Source: Pseudomonadota bacterium
Lineage (GTDB): Bacteria > Desulfobacterota > Binatia > UBA1149
Assembly: GCA_014382245.1 (NCBI GenBank)
Contig: JACNKC010000048.1
Coordinates: 2,032 to 66,031, forward strand
Reading direction: 5' to 3'
DNA: 64,000 bases
Part shown: positions 2,966 through 57,132 of the stretch, piece by piece
Layout of the letters: the number at the start of each line of letters is the position of its first letter
Position numbering within the stretch: position 1 is the first letter of the stretch
Program-made: the position numbers and the translations under genes
Notes under the pieces: model-generated
Databases searched by the model: none
Told to the model about the DNA's origin: nothing
The model's input: the letters and a program-made list of their open reading frames with translations, nothing else

Positions 2966-2995
2966 GAGAACGCCGATTGAGAGAACGCCAGGATT
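2951..2995. repeat. 15-bp tandem repeat (GAGAACGCCGATTGA x2 plus a diverged third copy) that includes the stop codon of the preceding CDS
   Basis: Direct reading gives gagaacgccgattga gagaacgccgattga gagaacgccaggatt. Confidence 0.85.
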
Positions 2996-3018
2996 AACGA
3001 CTGAAAGGAGACGAAGTC

Positions 3019-4032: not shown

Positions 4033-4054
4033 CCGGCCTTCCGGGCGAGCGGCG

Positions 4055-13425: not shown

Positions 13426-13584
13426 CAGGTGTTACCCGGCGGCGCGGTGGGAGCAAGAACGGGTTGGGCGACCCCGCAACTGGGGGGGGCTTGAACGCGA
13501 AACTAACGCGCTGGCGGGCTGGGAGGCAATTTTTACCCACATGAGGGGTGGTCTGGACAGGAGAACCCTGGTTATAGTGTCCTT

Positions 13585-14661: not shown

Positions 14662-14681
14662 ACAAACCCACCGGCAGGCCT

Positions 14682-14861
14682 CCCTACCCAGCTCCCCGGA
14701 CGGGAAGCCCTACCCAGCTCCCCGGACGGGAAGCCCTACCCAGCTCCCCGGACGGGAAGCCCTACCCAGCTCCCCGGACGGGAAGCCCTACCCAGCTCCC
14801 CGGACGGGAAGCCCTACCCAGCTCCCCGGACGGGAAGCCCTACCCAGCTCCCCGGACGGGG
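14682..14861. repeat. Perfect 26-bp tandem repeat (CCCTACCCAGCTCCCCGGACGGGAAG), about 6.9 copies, intergenic between convergent genes
   Basis: Direct reading shows units starting at 14682, 14708, 14734, 14760, 14786, 14812 and 14838. All are identical and there are no spacers. Confidence 0.95.
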
Positions 14862-14917
14862 ATACGCACCTTTTTTTTTACAGGCTCGCGCCTGTCACAA
14901 AAAAGAGAGCGCATCCC

Positions 14918-16033: not shown

Positions 16034-16066
16034 GGTACTCTCCTTTTTTTCAGACGGTTTCGAAGT

Positions 16067-16702
16067 TCAGCGTAGCAGCTCTATTTCAACTCCAGGGGTC
16101 TTGCCCCCGGTGACGTTCACGCTCACCGGTTCGGCCCTCATGCGTTCGTTCCATATCTCGAGTTCGTAGTCACCCGGTGGAACGTTGTCGATGGTGAACG
16201 CGCCAGCGCTATCGGTGACCGAGAAGTAGGGGTTGTCGCGTACCACGACGTAGGCCACCATCAGGGCGTGCAGTTTGCACAGCTGGGTGTAAGTGCCGGT
16301 CTCCTTGAAAGTCCAGGTTTTTGAACCACCCTGCCCCCAGCTTCCGAGGTCGTAGGACTCACCGTCGGGTGAGAACACCGTGTGCTCGGCTGCATCGCTG
16401 TTCACGAATTTGACAGTCGTACCCTTGAGCACGGGCAGTACCCTGGGTACGAACTGCATGTCTTTCTGGTCCATCACCGGTTGTTCGGTCGGTGTCTTGA
16501 AATCTCCAGCTATGGCCTTGATGGCGACGACGGTGTTTTTTACATAGCGCTCGCGCCCAACCACCTTGCCGCTGATGGTTCCGGCGGCCGCCTGTTCTGC
16601 GCCCAGCAACAGCAAAGCTGACATGCCCAGCAACAACGCGGGGCGCAATCGGTGGCCGATGGACGGGCGGGACGAGTAACGATGGGCGGAGATGTTTTTC
16701 AT
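16067..16702 (-). CDS. Periplasmic type-1 copper (cupredoxin, amicyanin-like) protein embedded in a CarboxypepD_reg-like fold
   Basis: Has a signal peptide. Candidate copper ligands are H in AAEHTV and C-K-L-H-A-L-M (C-x2-H-x2-M spacing). Flanking GTISGKVVG and FTIDNVPPGDYELEIW segments are typical of carboxypeptidase-regulatory-like domains. Its start overlaps the stop of the Mo subunit gene. Confidence 0.55.
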   Translation of the reverse strand: MKNISAHRYSSRPSIGHRLRPALLLGMSALLLLGAEQAAAGTISGKVVGRERYVKNTVVAIKAIAGDFKTPTEQPVMDQKDMQFVPRVLPVLKGTTVKFVNSDAAEHTVFSPDGESYDLGSWGQGGSKTWTFKETGTYTQLCKLHALMVAYVVVRDNPYFSVTDSAGAFTIDNVPPGDYELEIWNERMRAEPVSVNVTGGKTPGVEIELLR

Positions 16703-19380
16703 ACGGTCTGTCCTATGTCGCGTGACTTGAAGGTCATTTTCTCAAGTGATTCCTTGTATTCCGATTCGCCGATCTTGCGCAACTTGCCCGACGCGAGCTT
16801 GAAGCGGTAGTTATTGGCAATAGGGTCACACACCCGCGGCACCAGGCTGTTGGCCGCCGCCTTGGGGTCGAGAAAGTACATGAACGCAACGCCGGGCTTG
16901 GGCACCGGCATCACCACCGCTACCGCTCTTACCGAGGCGCTGGTCATTTCTATGTGGCCGTTTTCTACCAGCTTGGAGAACAGGGCGTCCTCTGTGTCAC
17001 GGGCGACGAAGCCGGACTTCTGCACGGCCACGCGGTCGCTTTCGGCCACCACGTAGTCTCCGCTTTCTATGCCGAGACGTTCAGCATCGTCAGGGTGCAG
17101 CTCGATGAAGTTCTCGGGCCAGCGCCGCGTGATGTAGGGACGACGCTCCACGTCGTCGAAACCCGACTGCCAGATCTCGTTGACACGGCCGTTGATTACC
17201 CACAGTTCGCCGTCCTTGGGCCGGATATACTCGTAGTAGTCGGCGAACAGCCACCACGGCGACTTGATGAAGTTAGCCTTGCCCGACTGCGTGTTGAAAC
17301 CATTGAGTTTCTTGTTGTGTACGGTGGGTCCCTGCGGTCCCGTGGCCGGCAACTTGAGCGTGGAATCGTGCAGGCGCTTGGTGCCCAACAACTCGCCGTC
17401 TTCCCAGCGCACCGGTCCTTGTATGCCCGTGGTGCCGTAGCTGCGCAGCAGCTCGTGGCCCTTTACGCCGTCTTTCTTGGCCTTCCAGACCAGGGGGTAG
17501 TAGTCCTTGCGACTGCCCCTCGTGTGGCGCGCCGCCTCTTCGAAGACATCGTTGGATTCTTTCCACTCAAAGTCTGCAAAACCCATTCGCTGGCCGATCT
17601 GGCCGGCTATCCACCAGTCGGGCCTGGCGTCCCCGGGTGGGTCATAAAACTTGGAGTACACGCGCAGGCGACGCTCGCCGTTGGCCCTGACCAGGTCTTC
17701 TTCTCCCCAGCCGGCCGCCGGCAGAACGATGTCGGCGATCTCGGCTCCGATGGGGTTGCGCAAGTAAATATCCTGGTTGACCACCACCGTGCCACCCGAA
17801 TCGACGCGCTTCTTGAGCGTGCGGATGATGCTGCTCTTGCGGCTGCTCGTGACCTGGTTGGGATTGCGCCGCGTGAGATCGAGGAAGGTCTCGTGCAGGG
17901 CTCCACTGGCTGTCATGCCGGCCGTCCAGGTAGTCCCTATAACGTAAGCAAAACGGACGTTGCCGTTCTCGACCCAGCGGTCGAGGTCCAGGGTCTTGCG
18001 CCTACGACCGGCGAATTTTTCGGGCGAGCGTTCGAGCGGGTAACGACCCGCCTTTACGCCGCCACGCTGGTGACCACCCATGCGGCCGATCATCTGGCCG
18101 GGGCGGTTGCCCGCGCCGCACAAGAGTCCGAGCGAAGCGTAGGACGCCGAGTTGGTGTAGTTGTTGGACCAGTAGTTGCCCTTTTCGAGCACCAGCATGG
18201 TCCTGGGCCGGTTGCCGTTTTTGCGCGGGCGCGCCATGAGTTCGGCGGCCCTGTGGATATCGTCGGCGTCAAGCCCGCAAGTCCGGGCCGCGAAATCGAG
18301 CTTGGATTCATCTATCGAGAGAATCCACTCCTTGAAGCCAGCGTAGTCTTTCGCTTCGAACTTGCCCCAGGTGGTACGCCACTGCCACGGAGTGTTGCGC
18401 GTACCCTGGCCGAAACCTGACTCGATCTCCCATTTGTTAGACGTGTACTTCTTTATCCAGTCTGAATCTTCCCAGCCGTTTTCAATAATGATACGTGCAA
18501 GCGCGAGATGCAGCACGGTGTCGGTGCCCGGCGTGATCCACAGGTGCAGGCCGCCGGTTTCCTCGGCGAAGGTGCAGCCGGCCGTCTTGCGCGGGTTGAT
18601 CATTATGATCTTGGCCCGGTGACCCGACACGCCCTTCATGATCCAGTGATTGAAAAGAACGGTCTTGGTCTCGAAGGGATCGGTTCCCGAGATGACCAGG
18701 GTTTCGGCCAGCGAGTAGTCCTCGTAGCTGGGACCGAAGTTGTCGATGCCCACGTCGCGGAAGCCAGGCGTGGACGAGGTGACCGAGGGGTTGTCGTGCC
18801 ACGCGAAGGCCGGCGTGCGGATGCCCACGAGCGCGAGCTTGGTGAGCGCGTAGGTGTTCTCGAAGTAGTGGTAGGAGAACATCTTCTGTGCCCAGGAGTG
18901 CACGCCGTACTTGTCGATGACGTACTTGGAAACCTCGGCAAAAACGTCGAGGGCCGTGTCCCATGACACCTCCCTGAGCTCGCCGTCGATGCGAATCATG
19001 GGGTGCTTCAGCCGGTCGCGCGTGGGCGTCTCGGGGTTGTAGCATTTCTGGGCTATGCAGCCGCCGCGAATGCTGTGGTTGCCGTTAACGTTGACAACGG
19101 TCGCGTCCTGGTCCGGCGCCACTATCACGTTGTGGGGCTTGCCTTCGTGGCTGACCACGTTGTGCATGTTGGGGGTGAGCCACCCGCCTTTCTCAAGCTC
19201 GACCGGGTAGTCCAGGCCCAGGGCGTTTTCGTCGGCGCGCGGGCCGCCCTCCTTGCCCACAGGCCAGCGATAGACCTTGTAGCCACAAGCGACAATGCAG
19301 TAATCGCAAGCGGTGGTTATGACGTCGGCGTCTTTTGGCGGAAGCGGTACCCGGTCGGTTGCCCTGTTCTTGTCTGACAT
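16699..19380 (-). CDS. Mo-bisPGD large subunit of the arsenite oxidase AioA / iodate reductase IdrA clade
   Basis: 893 aa with no signal peptide. The N-terminal CDYCIVACGYKVYRWP...ENALGLD has the C-x2-C-x3-C 3Fe-4S pattern of AioA-type enzymes. It also has RMGGHQRG, NGERRLRVYSKFYDPPG and INGRVNEIWQS, recalled as AioA-like blocks. Confidence 0.85.
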   Translation of the reverse strand: MSDKNRATDRVPLPPKDADVITTACDYCIVACGYKVYRWPVGKEGGPRADENALGLDYPVELEKGGWLTPNMHNVVSHEGKPHNVIVAPDQDATVVNVNGNHSIRGGCIAQKCYNPETPTRDRLKHPMIRIDGELREVSWDTALDVFAEVSKYVIDKYGVHSWAQKMFSYHYFENTYALTKLALVGIRTPAFAWHDNPSVTSSTPGFRDVGIDNFGPSYEDYSLAETLVISGTDPFETKTVLFNHWIMKGVSGHRAKIIMINPRKTAGCTFAEETGGLHLWITPGTDTVLHLALARIIIENGWEDSDWIKKYTSNKWEIESGFGQGTRNTPWQWRTTWGKFEAKDYAGFKEWILSIDESKLDFAARTCGLDADDIHRAAELMARPRKNGNRPRTMLVLEKGNYWSNNYTNSASYASLGLLCGAGNRPGQMIGRMGGHQRGGVKAGRYPLERSPEKFAGRRRKTLDLDRWVENGNVRFAYVIGTTWTAGMTASGALHETFLDLTRRNPNQVTSSRKSSIIRTLKKRVDSGGTVVVNQDIYLRNPIGAEIADIVLPAAGWGEEDLVRANGERRLRVYSKFYDPPGDARPDWWIAGQIGQRMGFADFEWKESNDVFEEAARHTRGSRKDYYPLVWKAKKDGVKGHELLRSYGTTGIQGPVRWEDGELLGTKRLHDSTLKLPATGPQGPTVHNKKLNGFNTQSGKANFIKSPWWLFADYYEYIRPKDGELWVINGRVNEIWQSGFDDVERRPYITRRWPENFIELHPDDAERLGIESGDYVVAESDRVAVQKSGFVARDTEDALFSKLVENGHIEMTSASVRAVAVVMPVPKPGVAFMYFLDPKAAANSLVPRVCDPIANNYRFKLASGKLRKIGESEYKESLEKMTFKSRDIGQTV

Positions 19381-19408
19381 GACTTTCCTCTCTTTACTCG
19401 CCTGTTGA

Positions 19409-19993
19409 TCAGGAGTTAGCGCTGCGGCCGTACACCAGGCCCTGCAGCCCGGTCGCGTAGATGTCGTTTCCGTCGGTTTCGAGCACTACCTGCACCAGGC
19501 TCTGGGTGGCGTGACCCGATACGATCATGCCGTGACGGGTGAGGTCGAAGGTACTCAGGTGGGTGGGGCAGGGCCCCATGACCTTGCTGTCGCTCTTGTA
19601 CGAGGAGGCCAGTATTCCTCCCATGTGCGTGCACAGGGTCGAGAAAGCCACCACGTCGCCGTCCTTGCCAACACCTCCGCCGGCCTTCTCGCCGAGCTTG
19701 ATGAGCAGGTGGTTTGAGTAGGTCGCGTTGTCGTCCGGGTAGCGGAAGGGTATCGGTTTGTTGGTCACCAGTTCGTCGAGACCGGCTATGCGCTTGCGCG
19801 GGTACGGGGTACGCGTGGCTGCCACGGCACGGGTAGCACCGCCCCAGGGCGAGGTGACCAGGAGGGTGACGGTGATGGCACCGGCTCCCTCGAGGAAGCG
19901 GCGGCGTGAGATACGGCAGGGCGATTGGCCGGGGTCTGTTTCTAACCTGGCTTCGTGTTCGTCGACTTCGGGCTTCTGTATTACATCACTCAT
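19409..19993 (-). CDS. Tat-exported Rieske [2Fe-2S] small subunit (AioB/IdrB-like)
   Basis: Has a twin-arginine motif (SRRRFLEGAG) and Rieske boxes CTHMGG and CPTH. It lies immediately upstream of the Mo subunit gene. Confidence 0.8.
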   Translation of the reverse strand: MSDVIQKPEVDEHEARLETDPGQSPCRISRRRFLEGAGAITVTLLVTSPWGGATRAVAATRTPYPRKRIAGLDELVTNKPIPFRYPDDNATYSNHLLIKLGEKAGGGVGKDGDVVAFSTLCTHMGGILASSYKSDSKVMGPCPTHLSTFDLTRHGMIVSGHATQSLVQVVLETDGNDIYATGLQGLVYGRSANS

Positions 19994-21210
19994 TCGAAAA
20001 CTCCGTACCTGGGTAGTTCGGGGGGCTCCATGGTCAATTCCTCGCCGGTGAGCGATTCGAGAAAGGCGATGAGATCCTGTTTTTCGTCGTCGGCCAGCCC
20101 GAGGGGTCTTAGCACCGGCGTCTTGGTGGCCGTGCCTGTCAATAGTTTCGCGTGGTCGTCGCCGCCGCCCTGGTCGTAGAAGTCGATGACTTCCTCGAGC
20201 GTGAAAAACACGCCGTTGTGCATGTAGGGGGGCGTAAAGACCAGGTAGCGAAGCGTCGGCACCCTGAACTTGGCGATGTCGTGCTCCTGCTTGGTGCGGT
20301 AGTAGAGTCCCAGGTCTATCTTGGTGCGGCGGTATAGGTCTTCGCTCACTCCCTTGGCGAACTGCTCGAAGCGGAAGGTAATCTGCTTGAGCGGATCATC
20401 GTCGAAGACATCGTTCGGTGGCACCCCGAGGTTGTAGTACTTCTCGTTGCTGAACAGTGCGCCGTCGTGGCACTCTATGCAGCGAGCCTTGCCCTCGAAA
20501 AGTTCCTTGCCGCGCAACTCGGCTGGCCCCAGCGCGTTCTTGTCTCCGAGCATGTAGAGATCAAATGGCGTGTCTCGCTGTACGAGGGTGCGCTCGAAGG
20601 CCGCGATAGCCTTCCAGGCGTCGGGTAGCTCAGGACGCGCGTTACCGAAGACCTTCTTGAACCGCTTGTTGTACTCGGGGATTTGTCGCAGGCGTTCTTC
20701 CATCACGTCGCGCTCACCGTTTCCGGCCACGCCGCCGCGGGCGGCAGAAGGGGCCTGGGATTCGAGACTTTTTGCCGAGCCGGCCCAGAACAGCTTGCGG
20801 TAGTAAGCCGAGTTGATGATGGACTGGCAATTGCGCCAGTGGCTGGTCCCCGGGTAGCCCCGGCAGACCTCGGCACCGTCCTGCCAGCCTATGGCCGGGT
20901 CGTGGCAGGTTGCGCACGACAGGCTCACGTCGCCCGAGAGCCTGGGATCAAAGAACAGCAGCTTGCCCAGCTCTACCTTGGCAGCCGTGATCGGGTTATC
21001 GGCGGGAACCGGCGGCGGGCCGAGCGCCGCAAGGGGAGTGACGGCGCCCGGGCCCCCGTCGGTCGCCGGGCCGGTAGCGGCATCGGCAGCCACGGGGAGA
21101 AGAACCAGTCCCACCGCCGGTAGGATGGACAACAGGCCGGTAAGAATTGCTGGGCCTGCACTTGCTCGTATTTTCATGGCCAGGGAGCTCCTTGTTCTGT
21201 CGCGGCTCAT
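19990..21210 (-). CDS. Dihaem cytochrome c peroxidase (CCP/MauG family), copy 2
   Basis: Has a signal peptide and two haem motifs, CATCH and CIECH. Its stop overlaps the Rieske gene start. Confidence 0.85.
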   Translation of the reverse strand: MSRDRTRSSLAMKIRASAGPAILTGLLSILPAVGLVLLPVAADAATGPATDGGPGAVTPLAALGPPPVPADNPITAAKVELGKLLFFDPRLSGDVSLSCATCHDPAIGWQDGAEVCRGYPGTSHWRNCQSIINSAYYRKLFWAGSAKSLESQAPSAARGGVAGNGERDVMEERLRQIPEYNKRFKKVFGNARPELPDAWKAIAAFERTLVQRDTPFDLYMLGDKNALGPAELRGKELFEGKARCIECHDGALFSNEKYYNLGVPPNDVFDDDPLKQITFRFEQFAKGVSEDLYRRTKIDLGLYYRTKQEHDIAKFRVPTLRYLVFTPPYMHNGVFFTLEEVIDFYDQGGGDDHAKLLTGTATKTPVLRPLGLADDEKQDLIAFLESLTGEELTMEPPELPRYGVFE

Positions 21211-22328
21211 CAGTTGGGTACCGAGCGCCAGTCGGCTATGGCCTCGTAGGGTGGCAGGTCTATTTCACCTACCTCTATGGCGTCGCCCGACAGCGCTTCG
21301 AGGAAGGCGAGCAGGTCGGTCTTTTCGGCTGCGTTGAGATCGAGCGGCTTGAGCAAGGGGTCCCGGCCCTCGGCCGTACCGCCGCCGGCGTTGTAGAAAT
21401 CTATGACCTCCACCAGCGTGGCGATGGTGCCGTTGTGCATGTAGGGAGCGGTCCTGGACACTTCACGCAGGGTGGGAGTCACGAACTTGCCGCGGTCTTC
21501 TTCCTGCTTGCTGACGGTGAAGAAGCCAGGGTCTTCGCGGATAATCTCGAAGCCGGGCACGCCCATGAACTTGGCGAAGGATCTCAGGGTGAGATGCCTC
21601 AGCGGATCCCTGGTGATCTCGGGGTTTCCGGCCACGCCGGTGCGATGGGGCTGGTAGTCGCTCAGCATCGGCCCTTCGTGGCACTGTATGCAGCCCCCCT
21701 TGCCTTCGAACAATTGCTGCCCGCGGGTGGCCGAAGCAGACATGTTTCCCTCGTCGAAGGGCACGTTGCGCGACACGAGGGTTTTCTCGTAGGCCGAGAT
21801 GGCCTTCAGCGTCGCCCCGAAAGACGGCTCGGCGTTCATCGCCGACCTGAAGCGCTTGACGTACCCGGGTACCTGCTTGAGTCGTTCGAGCATGACGCGG
21901 CCGTCCATGTTCTGAAAATGCGACTCGGTGATCGAGTCACGCACCTGCGTCGGCATGTCCTTGCCCGTCAGGCGGCCGTCCCAGTAAAAATAGCGCGCGT
22001 GCGCCGCGTTGAGCACTGACTTCGTGTTGCGAAAGTACAGCGTGCCCGGGTAGGCGATGCCCAGCTGCTGGCCGTCGGTCCAGCCGGCCTCGGGGCGGTG
22101 GCAGGACCCGCAGGCCAGGACCGCGTCGCCCGAAAGACGCTGGTCGAAGAACAGGAGCTTACCCAGCTCGGCCAGTTCTGCCGAAGGGGCCTCGATGGCG
22201 GGCAGGGGACCGAGTGCCCGGGGTTGCGTTGTTGCTGCCGTGGCCCGATCCGCGGTGACCGCAAAACTCAAAACCAAACCGGCAAAGGCGATTCTAAGAA
22301 GACTACTGGGTCTTGTGGACATGCTCAC
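21210..22328 (-). CDS. Dihaem cytochrome c peroxidase (CCP/MauG family), copy 1
   Basis: Has a signal peptide and two haem motifs, CGSCH and CIQCH. There is a 1-nt stop/start overlap with the next peroxidase gene. Confidence 0.85.
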   Translation of the reverse strand: MSMSTRPSSLLRIAFAGLVLSFAVTADRATAATTQPRALGPLPAIEAPSAELAELGKLLFFDQRLSGDAVLACGSCHRPEAGWTDGQQLGIAYPGTLYFRNTKSVLNAAHARYFYWDGRLTGKDMPTQVRDSITESHFQNMDGRVMLERLKQVPGYVKRFRSAMNAEPSFGATLKAISAYEKTLVSRNVPFDEGNMSASATRGQQLFEGKGGCIQCHEGPMLSDYQPHRTGVAGNPEITRDPLRHLTLRSFAKFMGVPGFEIIREDPGFFTVSKQEEDRGKFVTPTLREVSRTAPYMHNGTIATLVEVIDFYNAGGGTAEGRDPLLKPLDLNAAEKTDLLAFLEALSGDAIEVGEIDLPPYEAIADWRSVPN

Positions 22329-22386
22329 TCCTTGGGGCTTTGACCGCTGCGGGTACTGTTGGTCAGCCGCTGGCCTGCAGGCTGTA

Positions 22387-22403
22387 AAGCAAGATACTTG
22401 CCG
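22387..22403 (-). promoter_or_regulatory. Candidate sigma54 (-24/-12) promoter upstream of the peroxidase/Mo-enzyme operon
   Basis: The minus strand reads cGGCAA-GTATC-TTGCt against the consensus TGGCAC-N5-TTGCW, with two mismatches. It lies about 60-75 nt upstream of the first CDS. Confidence 0.35.
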
Positions 22404-22657
22404 AATGCTGCCGCACGGCGCTGTAACCCTGAAGCTATGCTCGTTGCGAACATAAGGTTTTCTACCGCTGAAAACGGGTAGGTATTACAGGGACTTTTGT
22501 TGCTCGTCCTGCTCCCTGGAGTGGCCAGGTCGTCGAAACGCTCTTCTGGAGGGCCACCCGGCTGGTGTTCCCAAGCTCGGAATTTTTCCACCCGTGAGAA
22601 AATCCAGCGGACCGGTTTCCGGTGTCAGGGAAGAAATCGCCGGGGAGTGTGGCTGGA

Positions 22658-24745
22658 TCAGGGTTGTTGCCAGGAACGTATGAAGGAGACCAGGTCGAGT
22701 ATCTCGCCCGGTTTCAGCCACACCCCGGCGCCGGCTCCTTCGCCGAAGGCCGGCATGGGGGTGCCCGCGCGGCCACGGGCTATGGTGGCCAGCAGGAAAC
22801 CGTCGTCGGCTGCCTGCAGGAATTCAGGGTTGTTGATGGCCGGCGCGTACTCCGCATCGCCTCCACGCTTGCCTTTGCCTTTTTCGCCGTGGCAGGGGGC
22901 GCAGTAGCGTAACCAACTTGCCTTTCCGGCGGTCACGGCTTTCGCCGAGTCGTCGACCATGGGGCGGTGAATTCTCCAGGATTCGGGCTGTTCCCACTGA
23001 CGTATCCAGGCCACAAGGTCGGCTATGTCGCGGTCGGGCGTGTCGTTGTTGGATCCGACGGCGCTCATGATCTCGGCCAACGGCTGCATGGCTGTCCCGG
23101 CGCGGCCCGTCTCTATGGTCGCGGCCAACAGGGCGTCCGAAGCGTTGCGCAGCAACGATACGTTGTTGAGCTGGGAGCCCCGCGGGCTGCCCTGTCCCTG
23201 GCTGCCGTGGCAATCGGCGCAGAGTTTTTCGTAGAGCACACGGCCGCGTGTTTGGTCACCGGGTGCTGCTCGGGGAAGGGGAAGCCGCGACGGCGACTGT
23301 TGCCAGTCCCTTAGAAAGGCGAGCAGGTCGTTGAGCTGAGCGGCTTCAAGATCGCGGTGCGAAGGCATCGCTGTGCCCGGTCGACCGGAGACGATGGTCC
23401 GGGCGAGGAAGGTATCGTCGACAAGGGCCAGCAGGCCACTGGATCCGATAGCGTTGCCTATGCCTCCCTCGCCGTCCCAGCCGTGGCAGCCCATGCAGCG
23501 CGCCTCGTAGATCATCTCACCGTTGCCGGCGTTGCCCGCGCTTGAATCTGCGACGCCGGGATCCGGTCCCGTCGGTTCCCAGGAGCGCAGGTGTGCCACT
23601 ATGCGATCGATCTCGTCGCGTGCCAGGTTGCCGTGCCCGGCCCCCCAACGGGGCATTCCCGTGCCACTGCGCCCTTTCTCTATTATGAATCGATAGAAAT
23701 CGTCGCCCGCCACGGCCAGCGCCGACGGCAGGTTGAGTGTTGGGGTGTTGATCGCGTCCACGCGCCCGCCCAGCCCGTTGTCGCCGTGGCAGGCCGAGCA
23801 GAAGCCCTGGTAGAGCGTGGCGCCGTCGGCCCGGCTCGTGGCGGGGCCACGTCCGGCGGGGGCCCAGGAGTACTCGGCCGGCCCCGAGCGGCCCAGCGAC
23901 ATCATGTAGGCCGTGAGCGCCCGCGCCTCCGCTTCGCTCACGGTGGCCGGCATCACGCTGCCAGGTGATACCGAGGCCGGGTCGAGGAAGTGTCGGCTCA
24001 GCCAGCCCTCTACGTTTCGCGGGGCGTTGGAACCGATGGTAGAAAAATCAAAATCGTGGATCACGCTGTCGCCCACGTCGCTCAGGTCGGGGCCGCGCCT
24101 TCCGCCCCTGCCGTCTATGGCGTGGCAGCCCATGCAGCCCTGCTCGTTGAACAGCTGGCGTCCGCGCGAGAGCAACAGCGCGTTCTCGTTGCTGCCACGA
24201 TCGGCCCGCGTCATCAGCCCGGCGTCGCCGTGCAGGTCGGGTTCGAGGTGGCAGCGGCTGCACCTCGCTCGCAGGTGCTCGGTCGCCAGCATGGGCCGCT
24301 CCCAGTGAGCCACGCGGCCGTGTGCGTCGTCGGTTTCAGTGGCACGGCCCTGGCCCTGGTGGCAGACGGTGCAGCCGAACTTTTCTGGTGGGTGAAACTC
24401 CACGTGGCGGCCCGGGTGGGCGGCGAAGGGCCGGGGTTGGTCGGCCATGCGCGGGTCTTCGAGGCCCGCGTGGCAGGTTATGCAGCGGTCGGCTACGTCC
24501 AGCCGTGGTAGGTAGTTCTGCTGTATCTCCACGCGAAAGCCTGCCGCCGCCTGCTTGCCCGCGTCGTCGGTGGCCATCTCGTTGAGCAACAGGGCGTAGC
24601 GACTGCGCAGTCGGTACCAGTCGGCGAAGCGGTTTTCCTGGAGCGCGGCCACTACCAGCGTGGCGATGGTGGCGAGGCTGGTGACGAGCAGCGCCACCTT
24701 CATGCGTCGGTCGCTGCGGCGGGTCCTTGGGTCGAGCTCAGCCAT
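22658..24745 (-). CDS. Membrane-anchored octahaem c-type cytochrome
   Basis: Has one N-terminal TM helix and eight CxxCH motifs (CITCH, CTVCH, CSRCH, CMGCH, CSACH, CMGCH, CADCH, CAPCH). The last five sit in class-I-like modules with G(T/S)xMP Met-ligand motifs. Confidence 0.85.
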   Translation of the reverse strand: MAELDPRTRRSDRRMKVALLVTSLATIATLVVAALQENRFADWYRLRSRYALLLNEMATDDAGKQAAAGFRVEIQQNYLPRLDVADRCITCHAGLEDPRMADQPRPFAAHPGRHVEFHPPEKFGCTVCHQGQGRATETDDAHGRVAHWERPMLATEHLRARCSRCHLEPDLHGDAGLMTRADRGSNENALLLSRGRQLFNEQGCMGCHAIDGRGGRRGPDLSDVGDSVIHDFDFSTIGSNAPRNVEGWLSRHFLDPASVSPGSVMPATVSEAEARALTAYMMSLGRSGPAEYSWAPAGRGPATSRADGATLYQGFCSACHGDNGLGGRVDAINTPTLNLPSALAVAGDDFYRFIIEKGRSGTGMPRWGAGHGNLARDEIDRIVAHLRSWEPTGPDPGVADSSAGNAGNGEMIYEARCMGCHGWDGEGGIGNAIGSSGLLALVDDTFLARTIVSGRPGTAMPSHRDLEAAQLNDLLAFLRDWQQSPSRLPLPRAAPGDQTRGRVLYEKLCADCHGSQGQGSPRGSQLNNVSLLRNASDALLAATIETGRAGTAMQPLAEIMSAVGSNNDTPDRDIADLVAWIRQWEQPESWRIHRPMVDDSAKAVTAGKASWLRYCAPCHGEKGKGKRGGDAEYAPAINNPEFLQAADDGFLLATIARGRAGTPMPAFGEGAGAGVWLKPGEILDLVSFIRSWQQP

Positions 24746-24749
24746 ATAG

Positions 24750-26312
24750 TCAGTGCACCGGCCAGTGGGAGCGGCTCCAGTAAAAATCCCAGTTTGGACC
24801 GCGCAACTCCATGCCGACGTAGGTCATCACGACGAAGCCGGCCACGAAGCAGGTAAACAGGGCGATGGCGCCCAGTCGTGTTGAGCCGGTGTTGCGCAGT
24901 ATGACCAGCGACCAGGCGGCGTAGCCCAGCGTGAGCAGCGAGCCGGGGTTGACGAAGATGATGACGATCTGAGGTATGCCGGGGAACCAGTTGCGCAGCC
25001 AGCCGAAGTTAACCGGTATGGCCACCCAGGCCACGGCCAGCAGCACCGCGAAGGCGAGGCTCTGCAGGGCGATCTTGCGCCCGGCACGCCCGCTCATGTA
25101 GACCCCGGCCGGTTCTGCTTCGCGGTCCAGGTAGGGAATCAACGCCAGGCCGACCATGGCGACAGCGGGTATTACCAGTCCTCCCATGAAGGCCGAGTAC
25201 GAGACCATTTCCTGCAGGCCGAGGAAGTACCACGGCGCCTTGGCCGGGTTCTCGGGTACGTTGGGGTTGGCGATTTCCTTGAGCGGAGCGTCGTACAGCA
25301 CTCCCAGTACCAGGCAGGCCAGCGTACAGAGCATGAACACGACCAGCTCGCCCCTGAGCAGGTAGGGCCAGGTGGCGACGGTGTCGCCCGGCTCGTTGTC
25401 GGTGGCCGCCGAGCGGTCGCGTACAACCGCCATCAGCGACCAGGTCTTGTCGTTTTCGCCACCCGGTGGCGGCACGAGGTCGGGTGCCTGCCCGACAGCC
25501 CCGCTGGTCTGCTCGGCTTGCGGTCGGCCCAGGCCTCCGTCCTTGCGTATGCGCCAGAAGTGAACAGAGGCCAGCATTACCAGGACGATGGGCAGCAGCA
25601 TTACGTGCAGCAGGTAGAAACGCGTGAGCGCGTCCTGCCCGACTTCACCGGCACCGAGTAACAGCTCTTTCTGTAAGCCGCCCGGGTCGAACCATTGGGT
25701 AATTCCCAGCGCATCGGTCAACTCTCTTGGCGAGGAGGCTATGTTGGCGCCTATGGTGATCGCCCAGTAGGCCAACTGGTCCCAGGGCAGGAGGTAGCCG
25801 GTGAACGACAGCGCCAGGGTGACGACGAATAGAGCCATGCCCAGTAACCAGTTGAACTCGCGCGGGGCCTTGTAGCTGGCGGTGTAGAACACCCTGCACA
25901 TGTGCAGCATGACCACGATGACCATCAGGTGCGCGCCCCAGCGGTGGACGTTGCGTATCAGCCGGCCCGAGGGAACCACGTAGTGGATGTCCTTCATGCT
26001 GTTGTAGGCCAGCTCGGTTGACGGGGTGTAGTAGACCATCAGCAGGATGCCGGTGACCAGCAGTATGATGAAGAACGAAAGCGCGGCGATGCCCAGGCCG
26101 AAGGTCGCCGTCAATCCCAGCGTGCGAACGTGCACGCGGGTGGGGTGCAGGTGCAGGAACAGGCTTGAGAACACTGCCTGCGACCTGCCGCGTTCGGAGC
26201 GCGGACGGCCGTGGCGGAAAATCGAGTAGCTGAGCGTGTCGGGGAGACGGCGCAGGTTGGCTAGGAAAGCAGCCAGGCCACGCTTCTGGTCGAACCGTTT
26301 CATACCCGCCAC
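24750..26312 (-). CDS. Fused cytochrome b (b6-like N-part plus subunit-IV-like C-part with extra helices)
   Basis: Has conserved His pairs (RNVHRWGAHLMV, HVMLLP...SVHFW). The Qo-motif region reads KAPWYFLGLQE. Confidence 0.85.
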   Translation of the reverse strand: MAGMKRFDQKRGLAAFLANLRRLPDTLSYSIFRHGRPRSERGRSQAVFSSLFLHLHPTRVHVRTLGLTATFGLGIAALSFFIILLVTGILLMVYYTPSTELAYNSMKDIHYVVPSGRLIRNVHRWGAHLMVIVVMLHMCRVFYTASYKAPREFNWLLGMALFVVTLALSFTGYLLPWDQLAYWAITIGANIASSPRELTDALGITQWFDPGGLQKELLLGAGEVGQDALTRFYLLHVMLLPIVLVMLASVHFWRIRKDGGLGRPQAEQTSGAVGQAPDLVPPPGGENDKTWSLMAVVRDRSAATDNEPGDTVATWPYLLRGELVVFMLCTLACLVLGVLYDAPLKEIANPNVPENPAKAPWYFLGLQEMVSYSAFMGGLVIPAVAMVGLALIPYLDREAEPAGVYMSGRAGRKIALQSLAFAVLLAVAWVAIPVNFGWLRNWFPGIPQIVIIFVNPGSLLTLGYAAWSLVILRNTGSTRLGAIALFTCFVAGFVVMTYVGMELRGPNWDFYWSRSHWPVH

Positions 26313-26316
26313 TGCT

Positions 26317-26784
26317 TCAGGCCCTGAACCAGGTGCCCGCGGGCACTTCGCGGCCGGAGTCGACCGTGAGTCGTCCGTCGATGCTGCGGCTGACCTCGAG
26401 CCAGCGCAGCCCGCGCGGCGCCGGTCCGGCTACCACCGAGCCGTCCTTGGCAAAAGAAGAGCCGTGGCAAGGGCAGGCGAACCCCGTTTCGCTGCGATCG
26501 ACGATGCAGCCGAGGTGGGTGCACACCATGGATATGGCCGCGAAACCTTCCCGGCGTGACACCAGCAGGACGTTCTTGTCGGGAACAACCTGCATGCTGC
26601 CCACCGGGTAGTCCCGGCTGCGGCCGATCCTGAACCTGCGCGATGTTTCGGGCAACACGCGGGGGTTGGGCAGGCGTACCATGCCCGCCAAGGAGCCGAG
26701 CACGGCCAGTGCCGCGGTCCACCAGCCGGCAAGGCCGAGGAAGTCCCTGCGGGCAATGGGTTCGGGTTCAAGTCGTCCCGCCAC
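26317..26784 (-). CDS. Rieske iron-sulfur protein of the bc-type complex
   Basis: Has RRDFLGLAG, a TM anchor, and CTHLGC...CPCHGS. Confidence 0.85.
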   Translation of the reverse strand: MAGRLEPEPIARRDFLGLAGWWTAALAVLGSLAGMVRLPNPRVLPETSRRFRIGRSRDYPVGSMQVVPDKNVLLVSRREGFAAISMVCTHLGCIVDRSETGFACPCHGSSFAKDGSVVAGPAPRGLRWLEVSRSIDGRLTVDSGREVPAGTWFRA

Positions 26785-53131: not shown

Positions 53132-54649
53132 GTGTATTCTCTCGCGACCGTCATGGACGCCGCCCCCGAGATAGAATCTTCCCCGGACGCCGGGCCCTCG
53201 CAGTTGCCAGCGAACGGGCTCGTGGCATTCGTCAAGCGCGACTGCCCTACCTGCGAGCTCGTCGGGCCGGTGCTGGCCGAGCTGGCCGCCGCCGCAAAAA
53301 CATCTGCCAGCCCACTCACGGTTTACAGCCAGGACGATCCGTCGTTTCCCGAGGGCCTGCACCCGCGCGACGACCGCGAGCTGGCGGCCTCCTGGCGCAA
53401 CAAGATCGAAACCGTGCCCACGCTGCTGCGCCTGGACGACGGCCGTGAAACCGGCCGCGTGGTGGGCTGGCATCGCGCAGAGTGGCAAGAGCTTACGGGC
53501 GTTACGCGGCTTGGCGAGGCCCTGCCCGATAGCCGACCCGGTTGCGGCTCGCTGTCGGTCGATCCCGCGCGCGAGTCGCAACTCAGGGCGCGTTTTGAAA
53601 GCGGCCGCCTGTCGGCACGACGAGTTCAACTCGCCGAACTCGAAGACGAGTTCGAGCTGGCCCACGAGCGCGGTTGGAGCGACGGCCTTCCCGTCGTGCC
53701 GCCCACCGAGCGACGCGTGCTCGACATGCTCGAGGGTACTGAACGCGACCCCGCCGAGATCGTGGCCACGGTGCCGCCTGACCTCGTTGACTGCACGGTA
53801 GAAAAAGTAGCCATCAACGCTGTCATGGCAGGCTGCCGACCCGAGTACCTGCCGGTAGTGCTGGCCGCCGTTGAAGCCGTGTGCAGCGACGAGTTCAACA
53901 TGCACGGCGTGCTGGCCACGACCATGGGCGTTGGCCCTGTCTTGATCGTCAACGGCCCGCTGCGCCGCCGCATAAACATGAACTCCGGCGTCAACGTGCT
54001 CGGCCAGGGCAACCGCGCCAACGCGACCATCGGCCGCGCCCTGCAACTGGTCATCCGCAACGTGGGCGGCGGCCGCCCCGACGGGGTAGACCGCGCGACC
54101 TACGGCAACCCCGGCAAGCTGGGGCTGTGTTTTGCCGAGGGTGAAGAAGACTCGCCGTGGCAGTCGCTGGCCGTTGACCGTGGCTTCGACCCCTCGGCGA
54201 ACACCGTCACCGTGTTTACCGGCGAGGCGCCGCGCACGGTGGTCGACCAGCTGTCGCGCGAACCCGGGTCGCTGGCGCGCTCGCTGGCCGCCGGCCTCAT
54301 GGGCGTGCTACATCCCAAGCTGGGTTTCTTCATGGACGCCATGCTGGTCATCGGCCCTGAGCACGCGCGCGTGTTTGCCGACGCGGGTTGGGGCAAGCAG
54401 CAACTCATCGACCGCCTGCACGAGCTCACCACCGTGCCGGCCAGCGAAATGAGCCGCGGCACGGGTGGCATTGAAGAGGGCCTGCCGCTGCCCGCCGAAA
54501 TGGCCGACCAGCCCGTGGGTAAGTTCGTGCCGGGTGCGCTGCACCTGGTTTTTGCCGGCGGCGGCGCGGGGCTTTTCTCGGTCGTCATCGGCGGCTGGCT
54601 CAACGGCGACGCGGGCAGCCGCATGACCACGAGGGAGATAGGCAGATGA
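53132..54649 (+). CDS. Thioredoxin-fold (CPTC) N-terminal domain fused to a large conserved domain of unknown function
   Basis: Has VAFVKRDCPTCELVGPVL, followed by about 380 aa with no family I can name. An alternative start is the ATG at 53153. Its stop overlaps the next ATG (ATGA). Confidence 0.55.
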   Translation: MYSLATVMDAAPEIESSPDAGPSQLPANGLVAFVKRDCPTCELVGPVLAELAAAAKTSASPLTVYSQDDPSFPEGLHPRDDRELAASWRNKIETVPTLLRLDDGRETGRVVGWHRAEWQELTGVTRLGEALPDSRPGCGSLSVDPARESQLRARFESGRLSARRVQLAELEDEFELAHERGWSDGLPVVPPTERRVLDMLEGTERDPAEIVATVPPDLVDCTVEKVAINAVMAGCRPEYLPVVLAAVEAVCSDEFNMHGVLATTMGVGPVLIVNGPLRRRINMNSGVNVLGQGNRANATIGRALQLVIRNVGGGRPDGVDRATYGNPGKLGLCFAEGEEDSPWQSLAVDRGFDPSANTVTVFTGEAPRTVVDQLSREPGSLARSLAAGLMGVLHPKLGFFMDAMLVIGPEHARVFADAGWGKQQLIDRLHELTTVPASEMSRGTGGIEEGLPLPAEMADQPVGKFVPGALHLVFAGGGAGLFSVVIGGWLNGDAGSRMTTREIGR

Positions 54650-55179
54650 ACGAAGAACAAACGGCCACGCGAACCATACTCGACCCGGGTAACGAGCGCG
54701 TCCCGGGGCAGCGACCGGCCGCGCCCAGGCTCGGTGGCATCGAGGGCCGAACGGTCGGCCTGCTCGATATTTCCAAGCCCCGCGGCGACGTCTTTCTCAA
54801 CACCCTCGAGGCGCTGCTAACGGAGCGCGGCGCGCGCGTGCTGCGCTACGCCAAGCCCACCTTCACCAAGCCCGCGCCGGTGGACCTGAGGCAGAAGATC
54901 GCCGTGGAGTGCGAGGCCGTCGTGGAGGCCCTGGCCGATTGAGGCAGCTGCACGACGTGCAGTGTGCACGACATCGCAGATCTTGAATCACGCGGCATCC
55001 CGGGCGTATACGTGGCCACGGTGGAGTTTGAGCAGGCCGGTCATGGGCAGGCCGCGGCGCTGGGCGCGACCGAGGCCGGCGTGTTCGTGGCCCACCCGGT
55101 ACAGGATCGCAGCGACGAAGAAATGAAAGAGATGGCCAGGCTCGCAGTCGATGGCCTGATGGGGAGAATAACAGGATGA
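54646..55179 (+). CDS. Putative selenoprotein with an in-frame UGA (54940-54942) in a U-G-S-C motif
   Basis: The tracked ORFs 54646..54942 and 54964..55179 are in the same frame and separated only by a TGA. Read-through gives ...VVEALAD-U-GSCTTCSVHDIADLESRGIPGVYV.... Hairpins follow the TGA, and both ends are translationally coupled to neighbouring genes. Confidence 0.6.
54947..54970 (+). other. Candidate bacterial SECIS hairpin(s) downstream of the in-frame UGA
   Basis: GCTGCAC-GAC-GTGCAGT spans 54947-54963. An alternative hairpin, CGTGCA-GTG-TGCACG, spans 54956-54970 with a G-containing apical loop about 20 nt after the UGA. Confidence 0.35.
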
Positions 55180-56204
55180 CACAAACAGCGCCTTACACGT
55201 TGATTGACCCGCTTCTCGGTGACTCGGAGGCCGCCGAGCTGCTCGAGCTGTTCGAGCGTTTTGGCAGCTACGGCATGTACTCAGAGGAAGGCCTGAACGA
55301 GGGCATAGGCGAGGGCCTGCCGCAGCGGTTCGACGCGGCGTTCAACTTCGTCAACACCGGCGGACGTTTTGGCCGCCACGAGGAGCTCGAGGTACTCGTG
55401 GCGCGCACCAACTACTTTCGCGAAACCTACTGCTACGGCGACGAGGTGGCGGCACCCGGCATAGAAATAATGCGCGATCATCCCGCGCTCATCGAGGCCG
55501 CGCGCAAACTGTACGGCCACGACGTGATCGTGCCGGCCATAGTGTACGCCAACGTACTCGTGCCGGGGCAGGAGCTTGCCGTGCACACCGACGTGCCCGA
55601 GTTCCGCGGCGCCAACCGCAAGACCAACCCCGAGTGGCTGCTGGTGGTGATGCACCACAGCGGCTTGTTCGAACAGTGGCGCATGCCTATCGCCACCGCC
55701 GTGGCCTGGTTCCAGCGCGCCGAGGGCGGTGAGTTCGCGTTCTACCCCCGCGGCGCCGGGGGCGGCCCGAGCACGGTGCCGGCCTCGTTCAACACCGCGG
55801 TGGTCATAGACACCGACTCGGTGTTTCACGGCGTGGACCGCGTGCGCCAGACCACGGTCGAAATGCCCCTGCTCAAGCCGGGCATGCGCATGGTGAGCGA
55901 TGGCCCTGGTACGCAACGCTGGCGCGTTAAGACCGAAGACGGTGAGCTGGCGGCGTGGGACTTCGACGAGATCAGGCTGTCGATTTCCTGGAAGGCTTAC
56001 TGCTTTGCCGACCAGGCCGAGCGGCAGGCCTGGGTCGACGGCAGCGACGACATCGATCTCGATACAATACTCGACACGCTGCTCGACGATCTGCGCGGTC
56101 GCGGCCGCCTTAAAGGAGACCGCCCCGGGTCGAACCAGGACCTGGCCGAAATGCTGGTGGACGAGTACATAAAGTTTCCGCCCGCTGAGCAGGTGGCGGC
56201 CTGA
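55176..56204 (+). CDS. Hypothetical protein, possible non-haem Fe(II) oxygenase fold
   Basis: Has H-x-D (AVHTDVPEF) and a distal His (VFHGVDRV). No family was recognised with confidence. Its ATG overlaps the upstream stop. Confidence 0.45.
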   Translation: MTQTAPYTLIDPLLGDSEAAELLELFERFGSYGMYSEEGLNEGIGEGLPQRFDAAFNFVNTGGRFGRHEELEVLVARTNYFRETYCYGDEVAAPGIEIMRDHPALIEAARKLYGHDVIVPAIVYANVLVPGQELAVHTDVPEFRGANRKTNPEWLLVVMHHSGLFEQWRMPIATAVAWFQRAEGGEFAFYPRGAGGGPSTVPASFNTAVVIDTDSVFHGVDRVRQTTVEMPLLKPGMRMVSDGPGTQRWRVKTEDGELAAWDFDEIRLSISWKAYCFADQAERQAWVDGSDDIDLDTILDTLLDDLRGRGRLKGDRPGSNQDLAEMLVDEYIKFPPAEQVAA

Positions 56205-56229
56205 GCTAACCTGCGAGGAGTGTCCCGAT

Positions 56230-57132
56230 ATGCCTGAACTCGAAGTAAGACACCTTCCCGCCGACTCGGCGCCCGAAGACATAGCCGCCCGCCTGGCCGA
56301 AGACGGCGCGGTGGTCATAGACAAGCTCGTCGATGACGCCAGCATGGACCGCCTGGCCGATGAACTGGCGCCGGCAATGAAGGCCTCGCGTACCGGCCCC
56401 GACGAGTTCTCGGGTCACAGCACCCGCCGCACGGGAGCGCTGATAGCCCATTCCCAGGCCGCGCGTGAGCTGGTCATGAACGAGAAAATCCTGGCCACCG
56501 TGGGCAAGGTGCTGGGCCACGCAACCAATTTCCAGTTGCACCTGACGCAGATCATCGCCATCGGTCCGGGTGGCGAGGCGCAGCCGGTACACCGCGACCA
56601 GTGGGCCTTCGACTTTTTTCCTTTCCCCGACGGTTACGAAGTGCAGTGCAATACCATCTGGGCGATGACCGATTTCACCGAAAAAAACGGCGCTACCCGG
56701 GTCGTGCCGGGTAGTCACCGTGCCGGTGACGGCCGTCGTTACGAACTCGAGGACACCGTGCCGGCCACCATGCAACGCGGCTCGGTGCTGCTGTACACCG
56801 GCAGCGTCTACCACGGCGGTGGCAACAACAAGTCCGACGCCACGCGCTGCGGGGTCAACATAACTTACAACCTGGCGTGGCTCAGGCAGGAAGAGAACCA
56901 GTACCTGTCGGTGCCAACGGAAATAGCCCGCGAGCTGCCCGACGACCTGCTGAGGGTGATGGGCTACGCGCGCGGTGCCTACGCGCTGGGTTACGTGGGC
57001 AACCTGGAAGACCCTCTCAAGGCGCTGCGCGGCGAACACGCCACGGTCGAAAGCACCGGCCTGGGCACCTACGAGCAGGCCATCGAGCGAGCCGAGAAAA
57101 TGCGCGCCGAGCCCTTGGGCAAGAGCGACTGA
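56230..57132 (+). CDS. Phytanoyl-CoA dioxygenase (PhyH) family Fe(II)/2-oxoglutarate oxygenase
   Basis: Has the HRDQW (H-x-D), TRVVPGSHR and YHGGGNN pattern typical of PhyH proteins. Confidence 0.8.
   Translation: MPELEVRHLPADSAPEDIAARLAEDGAVVIDKLVDDASMDRLADELAPAMKASRTGPDEFSGHSTRRTGALIAHSQAARELVMNEKILATVGKVLGHATNFQLHLTQIIAIGPGGEAQPVHRDQWAFDFFPFPDGYEVQCNTIWAMTDFTEKNGATRVVPGSHRAGDGRRYELEDTVPATMQRGSVLLYTGSVYHGGGNNKSDATRCGVNITYNLAWLRQEENQYLSVPTEIARELPDDLLRVMGYARGAYALGYVGNLEDPLKALRGEHATVESTGLGTYEQAIERAEKMRAEPLGKSD

Follow-up and report, generated by a model that had tools for sequence, protein, structure and literature searches.

The window analysed here is a stretch of 64,000 nucleotides (nt) from contig JACNKC010000048.1 (assembly GCA_014382245.1), which comes from a bacterium of the Binatia. 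This report concerns a gene at 54646-55179 on its + strand that is interrupted by an in-frame TGA, and that very probably encodes a selenoprotein of the UGSC family, with the UGA read as selenocysteine (Sec). The gene lies directly downstream of a conserved partner gene, and contains a hairpin resembling a bacterial Sec insertion sequence (SECIS). The features of the locus are listed by window position (aa, amino acids).

53153..54649, + strand: partner gene, 498 aa, with a thioredoxin-like N-terminal domain containing CPTC, followed by a C-terminal domain of ~330 aa
54631..54637, + strand: Shine-Dalgarno-like GAGGGAG, read in the sequence; its last base lies 8 nt upstream of the UGSC ATG
54646..55179, + strand: probable UGSC-family selenoprotein gene, 177 codons plus the terminal TGA (from translation, NF041046, PF24696 and tblastn)
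54940..54942, + strand: in-frame UGA, probably read as selenocysteine; the column is TGA in 91 of 91 sequences
54944..54967, + strand: competing hairpin A, in which 54944-54953 pairs with 54957-54967 around the loop GAC; probably not the functional element
54954..54972, + strand: SECIS-like hairpin B, in which 54954-54961 pairs with 54965-54972 around the loop GUG (54962-54964)
55177..55179, + strand: true stop (TGA) of the UGSC gene (from the sequence, the list of open reading frames and the translation)

Translation of 54646-55179 (+) gives 177 sense codons and one internal stop, the TGA at 54940-54942. The two open reading frames (ORFs) on either side, 54646..54942 (98 aa, starting with ATG) and 54964..55179 (71 aa, starting with GTG), lie in one common frame, of which this TGA is the sole interruption, as a preliminary description of the sequence had stated. 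The product around the internal stop (*) is ...KIAVECEAVVEALAD*GSCTTCSVHDIADLESRG..., i.e. ...EALAD*GSCTTCSVHDIADLESRG..., and becomes ...EALAD-U-GSCTTCSVHDIADLESR when Sec is read in. Selenocysteine would be codon 99, at the head of the UGSC motif U99-G-S-C102-T-T-C105-S-V-H108-D. The TGA of the upstream gene and the ATG of the UGSC gene (54646) overlap as ATGA at 54646-54649, and the terminal TGA at 55177-55179 shares bases with the following gene's ATG (55176); with both overlaps present, the joined gene fits a coupled operon, as had been proposed. The downstream piece had also been described as beginning at a GTG without a ribosome-binding site, and the 14 nt preceding GTG 54964 (GCACGACGTGCAGT) indeed contain no Shine-Dalgarno-like run.

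To place the gene in a family, the joined 177-aa protein was searched with C substituted for U. It matched NF041046 (UGSC family (seleno)protein, NCBIfam) with 145.7 bits against a cut-off of 125, residues 33-172 covering profile positions 1-143 of 147, and PF24696 (Pfam UGSC) with 136.7 bits against a cut-off of 25, residues 10-173 covering positions 1-168 of 172. Both scores confirm the family that had been named in the preliminary description. Each ORF half also matched PF24696 separately. Because these single-domain models span both halves, both ORFs are needed to make up the domain, and the two are parts of one UGSC-family gene. Matches found by tblastn in other genomes likewise cross both halves in one frame, the nearest species-level genomes having 59-69% identity to the window protein.

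The UGSC family is a known one, in the literature since 2007-2008, and the gene is not a new kind of element. The earliest mention of a UGSC-containing protein is as a selenoprotein without an assigned function from Hyphomonas neptunium and marine metagenomes (PMC1976440), and the family appears in the selenoproteome literature (PMC2398784, PMC1976440, PMC13188914), including the work of Zhang and Gladyshev (PMC1976440, PMC2398784). Sec forms make up most of the family and Cys forms are few; for GOS, 255 Sec forms and 21 Cys forms of UGSC were reported (PMC2398784). A 2026 review lists UGSC with NF041046, and describes the functions of such proteins as largely uncharacterised (PMC13188914).

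Genomes were scanned at one genome per species, yielding at least 596 genomes with a relative, and the best 80 loci were analysed. Together with the window and 10 near-identical contigs, these make up the 91 sequences compared at the Sec column; the 81 distinct Sec forms among them were aligned. The column is TGA in all 80 species genomes, which include Myxococcota, Acidimicrobiia, Dormiibacterota, a Pseudomonadales genome and others. The search patterns used to find the 80 loci left out the Sec column, so the uniform TGA is not an artefact of selection. An alignment of homologues had been proposed in the preliminary description as a check on whether they span both halves and on the residue at this column; the homologues cover both halves.

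In protein databases the family is mostly seen truncated, a pattern characteristic of Sec genes. Among the best 120 protein homologues, 111, of ~97-103 aa, end exactly at ...ALAD before the Sec column, and five continue past it, with C, C, W, W and R. Of 150 cluster representatives, found with a profile of the N-terminal half only, since most alignment rows were truncated forms, 83 end directly before the column and 3 continue (2 Cys, 1 Ser). The rare replacements at the column are Cys in P0286 and P0295 and Ser in P0323; the expectation that either Sec or Cys occupies the motif thus holds, with a single Ser in addition. Two further database entries that appear full-length or fused, P0012 (177 aa) and P0304 (651 aa), are frameshifted translations in which family-matching stretches alternate with out-of-frame Arg- and Pro-rich ones, and are not real variants.

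The simplest alternative is that the TGA is a genuine stop, leaving either a pseudogene or two small genes, the second starting at GTG 54964. Gene callers do report 98 aa plus 71 aa on every contig, the GTG (Val+8) is kept in 78 of 81 sequences, and no Sec machinery was found in the window or its 10-kb flanks. The codons directly after the TGA speak against such a stop. In all 81 sequences Gly+1, Ser+2 and Cys+3 are invariant as amino acids, while being encoded by four codons, by six codons including both AGY and UCN, and by two codons (UGC 61, UGU 20), respectively; no start codon lies between the TGA and codons +1 to +3. With the amino acids fixed, the codons varying, and no start codon in between, ribosomes must read through the TGA. 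The same holds for the whole interval: the seven codons that separate the TGA from the GTG keep their amino acids (G-S-C-T-S/T-C-S), three of them show synonymous changes, among these serine switches between AGY and UCN, and none is a start codon.

After the internal TGA, a further 73-89 codons follow without interruption in each of the 81 sequences before the frame closes with TGA, TAG or TAA, and the C-terminal half is present at 80 of 80 loci with a median identity of 57%. A pseudogene would not keep the TGA together with an open downstream frame in 80 of 80 species. The missing Shine-Dalgarno sequence at GTG 54964 and the family models that need both halves count against a second gene; so do the Cys forms, which are single uninterrupted ORFs, and the predicted domain, which is one continuous flavodoxin-like fold with Sec in its middle (see below). 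A genuine stop is thus very improbable. On these sequence comparisons, the UGA is translated at the level of the family.

A sequencing or assembly error, with TGA standing for TGC or TGT in what would really be a Cys form, can be set aside almost entirely. It would gain something from the short, low-coverage single contigs of close relatives that carry TGT, TGG or CGA at the column. The same split gene with its TGA, however, occurs in the window and on 10 independently assembled contigs from several samples, one of them at ~490x coverage, and the TGA recurs in 80 species genomes; the TGT and TGG variants keep the Sec-type hairpin described below, and look derived from Sec forms. Of the 60 genes called in the window together with 10 kb on either side, moreover, 47 have TGA as their ordinary stop, among them UGSC and the gene just upstream of it. 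The 10 independent assemblies and the local use of TGA as a stop thus exclude an error and a reassigned code. Other frames split by TGA and with high GC content at third codon positions were also sought in the window; in this 65% GC sequence the candidates were all spurious.

Two mutually exclusive hairpins can form 3' of the TGA. Numbered from the U of the UGA, these are hairpin A (nt 9-14/18-23, extendable to 5-14/18-28) and hairpin B (nt 15-22/26-33). The preliminary description had pointed to two alternative hairpins at this place; both are present, but only the one at 54954-54972, hairpin B, is conserved. Its stem begins 11 nt and its loop 19 nt after the UGA, and the stem has 6 contiguous base pairs (bp), or 8 positions if the A·A mismatch 54955/54971 is counted in. 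In an alignment of the 81 distinct sequences, each of 69 nt and starting at the UGA, hairpin B is paired in 96.6% of cells. Positions 18 and 30 never mismatch: 68 sequences have G-C there, 7 have A-U and 6 have G-U (Fisher p = 5e-7, ignoring phylogeny).

The synonymous sites within hairpin B are nearly frozen. Cys+6 inside the hairpin is UGC in 81 of 81 sequences, compared with UGC 61 and UGU 20 for Cys+3 outside it. Ser+7 inside is AGU in 81 of 81, whereas Ser+2 outside uses six codons, with AGC the commonest. Asp+10 inside is GAC in 80 of 81, compared with GAU 46 and GAC 28 for Asp+13 outside. Val+8 inside is GUG in 78 of 78, with no outside Val compared. The normalised synonymous entropy is 0.145 for codons +4 to +10 and 0.713 for the 49 other conserved codons in a gap-free stretch of 103 codons, none of the 49 falling below 0.38 (Mann-Whitney p = 1.6e-4). 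The only variable codon in the frozen stretch is His+9 (CAC/CAU), which holds the 3' partner of the covarying pair 18-30. RNA-level constraint therefore acts on the hairpin. As read from the alignment, the frozen synonymous sites are stronger evidence than the covariation, being confined to the hairpin.

The published model of bacterial SECIS (bSECIS) elements has an apical loop of 3-9 nt, an upper stem of 4-16 bp, a UGA-to-loop distance of 16-37 nt, a G in the first two loop positions followed by G or U, and an energy of -7.5 kcal/mol or lower (PMC13188914). The 3-nt GUG loop, the stem and the 19-nt spacing of hairpin B all fall within this geometry. Its energy is -7.4 kcal/mol in the window and -10.9 kcal/mol for the consensus, and 61 of 81 homologues reach -7.5 kcal/mol or lower.

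A natural control is provided by a homologue with TGC at the Sec column (protein P0295; contigs L099 and L100), which is found on many contigs. In this true Cys form the C-T-S-C-S residues are encoded with UGU and UCG, Thr stands in place of Val, and the hairpin has been lost (-1.9 kcal/mol in L099, compared with -10.9 for the Sec consensus).

Two other homologues without TGA at the column, L097 (TGT, 947-1486) and L098 (TGG, 333-848), are single short metagenome contigs in which every nucleotide of the Sec-type hairpin is retained. Both look like Sec forms altered at one nucleotide, by variation or by a read error. Close 'Cys', 'Trp' and 'Arg' homologues were tried as a relaxed control and were uninformative, the hairpin of L097 and L098 being identical. 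Counts of 'Cys forms' in protein databases may be inflated by variants of this kind.

Hairpin A is the minimum-energy fold of the free window RNA (-12.7 kcal/mol, nt 4-40), and a 60-nt fold has -15.8 kcal/mol with extended hairpin A, compared with -14.9 with hairpin B enforced. With nt 1-12 treated as covered by the ribosome, hairpin B came out as the best fold for 73 of 81 homologues; for the window it did not. Hairpin A was rejected as the SECIS. No pair in it has changed on both sides, its loop lies 11 nt from the UGA and thus outside the range of 16-37 nt, and its C14·A18 opposition is broken in exactly the 7 sequences in which hairpin B compensates.

Could the frozen nucleotides 54952-54972 serve another purpose, as a regulatory hairpin, a protein-binding site or a case of extreme codon preference? 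No Rfam model recognises the element, and the close TGT and TGG variants retain its sequence, as this explanation would allow. Its position, 11-nt spacer, 3-nt loop containing G and U, and stem of 6-8 bp nevertheless fit the bSECIS model, and the constraint is lost together with the UGA in the true Cys form. Codon preference is opposed by Ser+7, which is AGU in every sequence even in high-GC genomes, compared with the favoured AGC at Ser+2. We consider a purpose other than Sec insertion highly unlikely. The stem-loop expected just 3' of the UGA is supported by the frozen synonymous sites, the G-C to A-U compensation and its loss in the Cys form, and the hairpin at 54954-54972 is accordingly described here as a SECIS-like element, on comparative grounds.

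The genes for Sec synthesis and insertion were searched for in the window and in the 10 kb beyond each end. Pfam tables, taken from contigs 98-100% identical to the window and covering it with 10 kb on each side, contained no SelA, SelB or SelD domains, and ARAGORN found no tRNA in the window or flanks. The sole match in tblastn searches of the same region with actinobacterial SelA, SelB and SelD was a cross-hit to BipA. As no sel genes lie in the window or flanks, Sec decoding in this organism is inferred from its relatives.

In those relatives the connection is direct. Seven of the 80 loci, all from Acidimicrobiia, have the order selD, selA, selB, tRNA-Sec, partner, UGSC. Protein models gave 395-407 bits for selA, 274-320 bits for selB and 326 bits for selD; the tRNA-Sec matched Rfam RF01852 with 61-66 bits in six loci, ARAGORN added the seventh, and tblastn confirmed all seven. 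The partner-UGSC module may be one of the chief users of Sec insertion in these seven genomes. The sel sets are divergently oriented and directly upstream of the module (L017:360-4492, L085:407-4526, and L028, L032, L041, L048 and L087 at ~340-4504). A 96-nt 'tRNA-Phe (aaa)' called by ARAGORN at L028:4409-4504 and L041:4409-4504 is wrong, Rfam identifying it as tRNA-Sec (RF01852, 63.3 bits).

These results also bear on the possibility that the UGA is read through but not as Sec, by a near-cognate Trp- or Cys-tRNA or in an altered code, the Sec machinery having been lost. Such a loss would agree with the machinery not being located in the window and 10-kb flanks searched, and the window hairpin is among the weaker versions. 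Against it, TGA stops 47 of the 60 local genes, including UGSC and its upstream neighbour, so the code is not reassigned; the hairpin and frozen codons are exactly as in relatives that have the module beside selD-selA-selB-tRNA-Sec; and where Sec has truly been replaced, the codon is TGC and the hairpin decays. Read-through with another residue is therefore unlikely, with a slight chance of being right, and the residue inserted in this particular organism is inferred to be Sec.

Taking these lines together, we put the probability that 54646-55179 is one Sec-encoding UGSC-family gene at about 0.88. Several points weigh against it. The genes selA, selB, selD and tRNA-Sec were not found in the 64-kb window or in the 10 kb on either side of it. 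Single-sequence folding was no better than that of shuffled sequences (z +1.09 for 54940-55010 and -0.01 for 54940-54990), and Rfam gave no relevant match, either at gathering thresholds on the window or at E up to 10 on 54800-55200. The window hairpin is itself weak, with its A·A mismatch and an energy of -7.4 compared with the limit of -7.5 kcal/mol, and another fold has a lower energy both in the free RNA and with the 5' end occluded. The 7 A-U sequences are from low-GC Acidimicrobiia, and may reflect few independent events that are partly driven by composition. The Cys-form control is one lineage.

The partner gene, called as a 498-aa gene on identical contigs by gene callers, is found directly 5' of UGSC on the same strand in 77 of the 80 species loci, with a median identity of 59%. 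In 25 loci its stop codon shares an ATGA with the start codon of UGSC; in the others, fewer than 90 nt lie between the two. None of the genes downstream of UGSC in the window is conserved at the 80 relative loci. Since the partner is kept and the downstream genes are not, the conserved unit consists of two genes. A third conserved gene was looked for and rejected: a downstream DNA glycosylase and glycosyltransferases in Acidimicrobiia reflect lineage synteny only.

In the window, a 342-aa protein with a weak 2OG-Fe(II) oxygenase match and a PhyH-family dioxygenase are translationally coupled 3' of UGSC (55176-57132, +). They are not kept beside UGSC in the 80 other loci, and are probably unrelated to its function.

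Homologues of the partner number at least 8000 in databases, come from several phyla, and are named at most 'thioredoxin family protein'; among the best 120 the identity is 63-70%. The N-terminus is thioredoxin-like by weak matches, and its CPTC is invariant. The C-terminal domain of ~330 aa (residues ~170-498) gave no match in Pfam, NCBIfam or the PDB. Invariant Cys residues were recorded for it at 131, 214, 228 and 244. Its structural model is reasonably confident, with a predicted local distance difference test score (pLDDT) of 82.5.

Some proteins join the two components. P0373 (659 aa) contains partner residues 168-422 at 40% identity (E = 1e-53), followed by the N-terminal half of UGSC ending at ...ALAD, and P0341 (332 aa) and P0383 (299 aa) are similar fusions, with ...ALAD just before the presumed UGA. 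These fusions of the C-terminal domain of the partner to UGSC are probably the 'UGSC/Unknown_1' fusion mentioned in PMC2398784. The link to a neighbouring thioredoxin-fold protein that had been suggested for this locus is thus borne out by adjacency in 77 of 80 loci, and by fusion of the C-terminal domain in some proteins. The linkers in all three fusions are long and of low complexity, and the proteins may come from eukaryotes (algae). Long open frames in L026, L068, L076 and L087 were also considered as partner-UGSC fusions, and dismissed as high-GC artefacts without a match to the partner.

The Cys-form locus (L099:476-3555, L100:475-3555) has a different composition: a GntR regulator, a TrxB-like reductase (CATC), the partner (with CETC) and UGSC-Cys. 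The TrxB-like pyridine-nucleotide disulfide reductase is near the module in the L099/L100 lineage only, and was found neither at the 80 other loci nor in the window.

An AlphaFold2 model was made on a natural Cys-form homologue, 57% identical to the window protein. It has a pLDDT of 90.3, a predicted template modelling score (pTM) of 0.85, and five alternating beta-alpha units. Sec is placed in the loop after strand 3, and C+3, C+6 and H+9 on the following helix. The best Foldseek matches in the PDB were generic folds of the flavodoxin-like kind, namely flavodoxin, lumazine synthase, DpaB and the corrinoid domain MttC, with template modelling (TM) scores of 0.38-0.49, and no thioredoxin fold was among the top matches. 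A PDB sequence search with the UGSC profile gave nothing relevant. The model thus predicts that UGSC is a flavodoxin-like alpha/beta domain and not a thioredoxin-like one. In the literature UGSC is grouped with proteins of thioredoxin-like (Trx-like) fold (PMC2398784, PMC13188914); a 'likely Trx-like fold' for UGSC is not supported by this prediction.

The following mechanism is proposed. Translation would start at ATG 54646, coupled to the upstream gene through the overlapping stop. At UGA 54940-54942 the ribosome would insert selenocysteine, and then go on to TGA 55177-55179. This recoding would be directed by the hairpin in the coding sequence at 54954-54972, 11 nt after the UGA, which, by analogy with known bacterial systems, would recruit SelB·GTP·Sec-tRNA(Sec). 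The recoding part of this scheme is well supported. In the protein, the U-x-x-C-x-x-C-x-x-H motif is predicted to start in the loop after strand 3 and to enter the next helix. UGSC would then be the redox-active subunit of the two-gene module, forming a selenenylsulfide, and the thioredoxin-like CPTC domain of the partner would reduce the U-x-x-C centre or relay electrons to it. Gene adjacency, the fusions and the motifs suggest such a redox relay between UGSC and its partner, to which we give even odds; in the literature the function of UGSC is given as unknown (PMC1976440, PMC13188914).

More broadly, UGSC and its partner may form an uncharacterised two-component selenoenzyme with a flavodoxin-like selenoprotein subunit, and this enzyme may be a principal user of Sec insertion across many aerobic bacteria of aquatic habitats. 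We offer this tentatively, at slightly below even odds, because of the sel genes beside the module, the TrxB-like reductase in the Cys lineage, and the fusions. If it is correct, the window contains an intact copy of one such system, of as yet uncharacterised chemistry.

For annotation, the 98-aa and 71-aa 'hypothetical protein' calls belong merged into one 177-residue UGSC-family selenoprotein. Gene callers usually fail on selenoprotein genes in just this way, and the split is nothing new. The near-invariant SECIS, the obligate partner, the adjacency of sel genes and the predicted flavodoxin-like fold are results at the level of the family that could guide experiments. They might be of use to specialists, the family being abundant and of unknown function, and concern the family generally, the locus itself not being unusual.

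Elsewhere in the window, a respiratory-type gene cluster lies at 14888-24745 (- strand). It contains an 893-aa molybdopterin protein with a Rieske_3 domain, which is arsenite-oxidase-like (16699-19380), a Rieske protein, two di-haem peroxidases of the CCP/MauG type, a 695-aa multi-haem cytochrome c (22658-24745) and a porin. A cytochrome b/Rieske pair adjoins the cluster (24750-26784). A segment of ~1.3 kb at 13459-14779, present in the window and in contig L094, carries an ORF of 358 aa (13585-14661) with a faint 'SdiA-regulated' Pfam match. The 99.3%-identical contig L093 has 38 nt in its place, which indicates a strain-level insertion or deletion.

Comparison of UGSC with known systems shows partial likeness to several. 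Selenoprotein B of the glycine/sarcosine/betaine reductases (GrdB/GrdF, with the PrdB relatives) has weak local similarity to it around the Sec site, UGSC residues 86-134 aligning with profile positions ~334-381. The GrdB/GrdF models NF040794 (E = 5.5e-4, 18.7 bits against a cut-off of 800) and TIGR01917 (E = 2.4e-3, 16.8 bits against 602.2) gave these matches, and Pfam GRDB gave none to the UGSC protein at E up to 10. The U-x-x-C motif is common to the UGSC and GrdB/GrdF families (GOS table, PMC2398784). UGSC differs from GrdB/GrdF/PrdB in its size, 177 aa compared with ~430 aa, and has no grd or prd genes nearby.

Like the UxxC/CxxC oxidoreductases of thioredoxin fold, UGSC has its U-x-x-C at the N-terminus of a helix right after a beta strand, and it is genetically coupled to a thioredoxin-domain protein. 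Unlike them, it is predicted, from the model of the 57%-identical homologue, to lack the mixed-sheet beta-alpha-beta-alpha-beta-beta-alpha fold.

The hairpin resembles bacterial SECIS elements of the E. coli fdhF type and the bSECISearch consensus in lying within the coding sequence directly 3' of the UGA and, in the window, in its small loop beginning with G and then U, its upper stem of 6-8 bp and its spacing of 19 nt. The minimal E. coli fdhF element has an 11-nt spacer, equal to that of hairpin B. Bacterial SECIS elements are reported to be mostly unlike each other (PMC13188914). The UGSC hairpin, in contrast, is almost invariant in sequence across phyla, and has no Rfam covariance model.

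Compared with the UGSC family as a whole, the window copy is not different in any essential. It has Thr at +5, where Ser is commoner, and this Thr codon brings the A·A mismatch into its hairpin, which 20 of the 81 homologues share. In its size, typical of the family at ~175 aa, in its U-G-S-C motif, and in having TGA at the family Sec column, it is like the other members.

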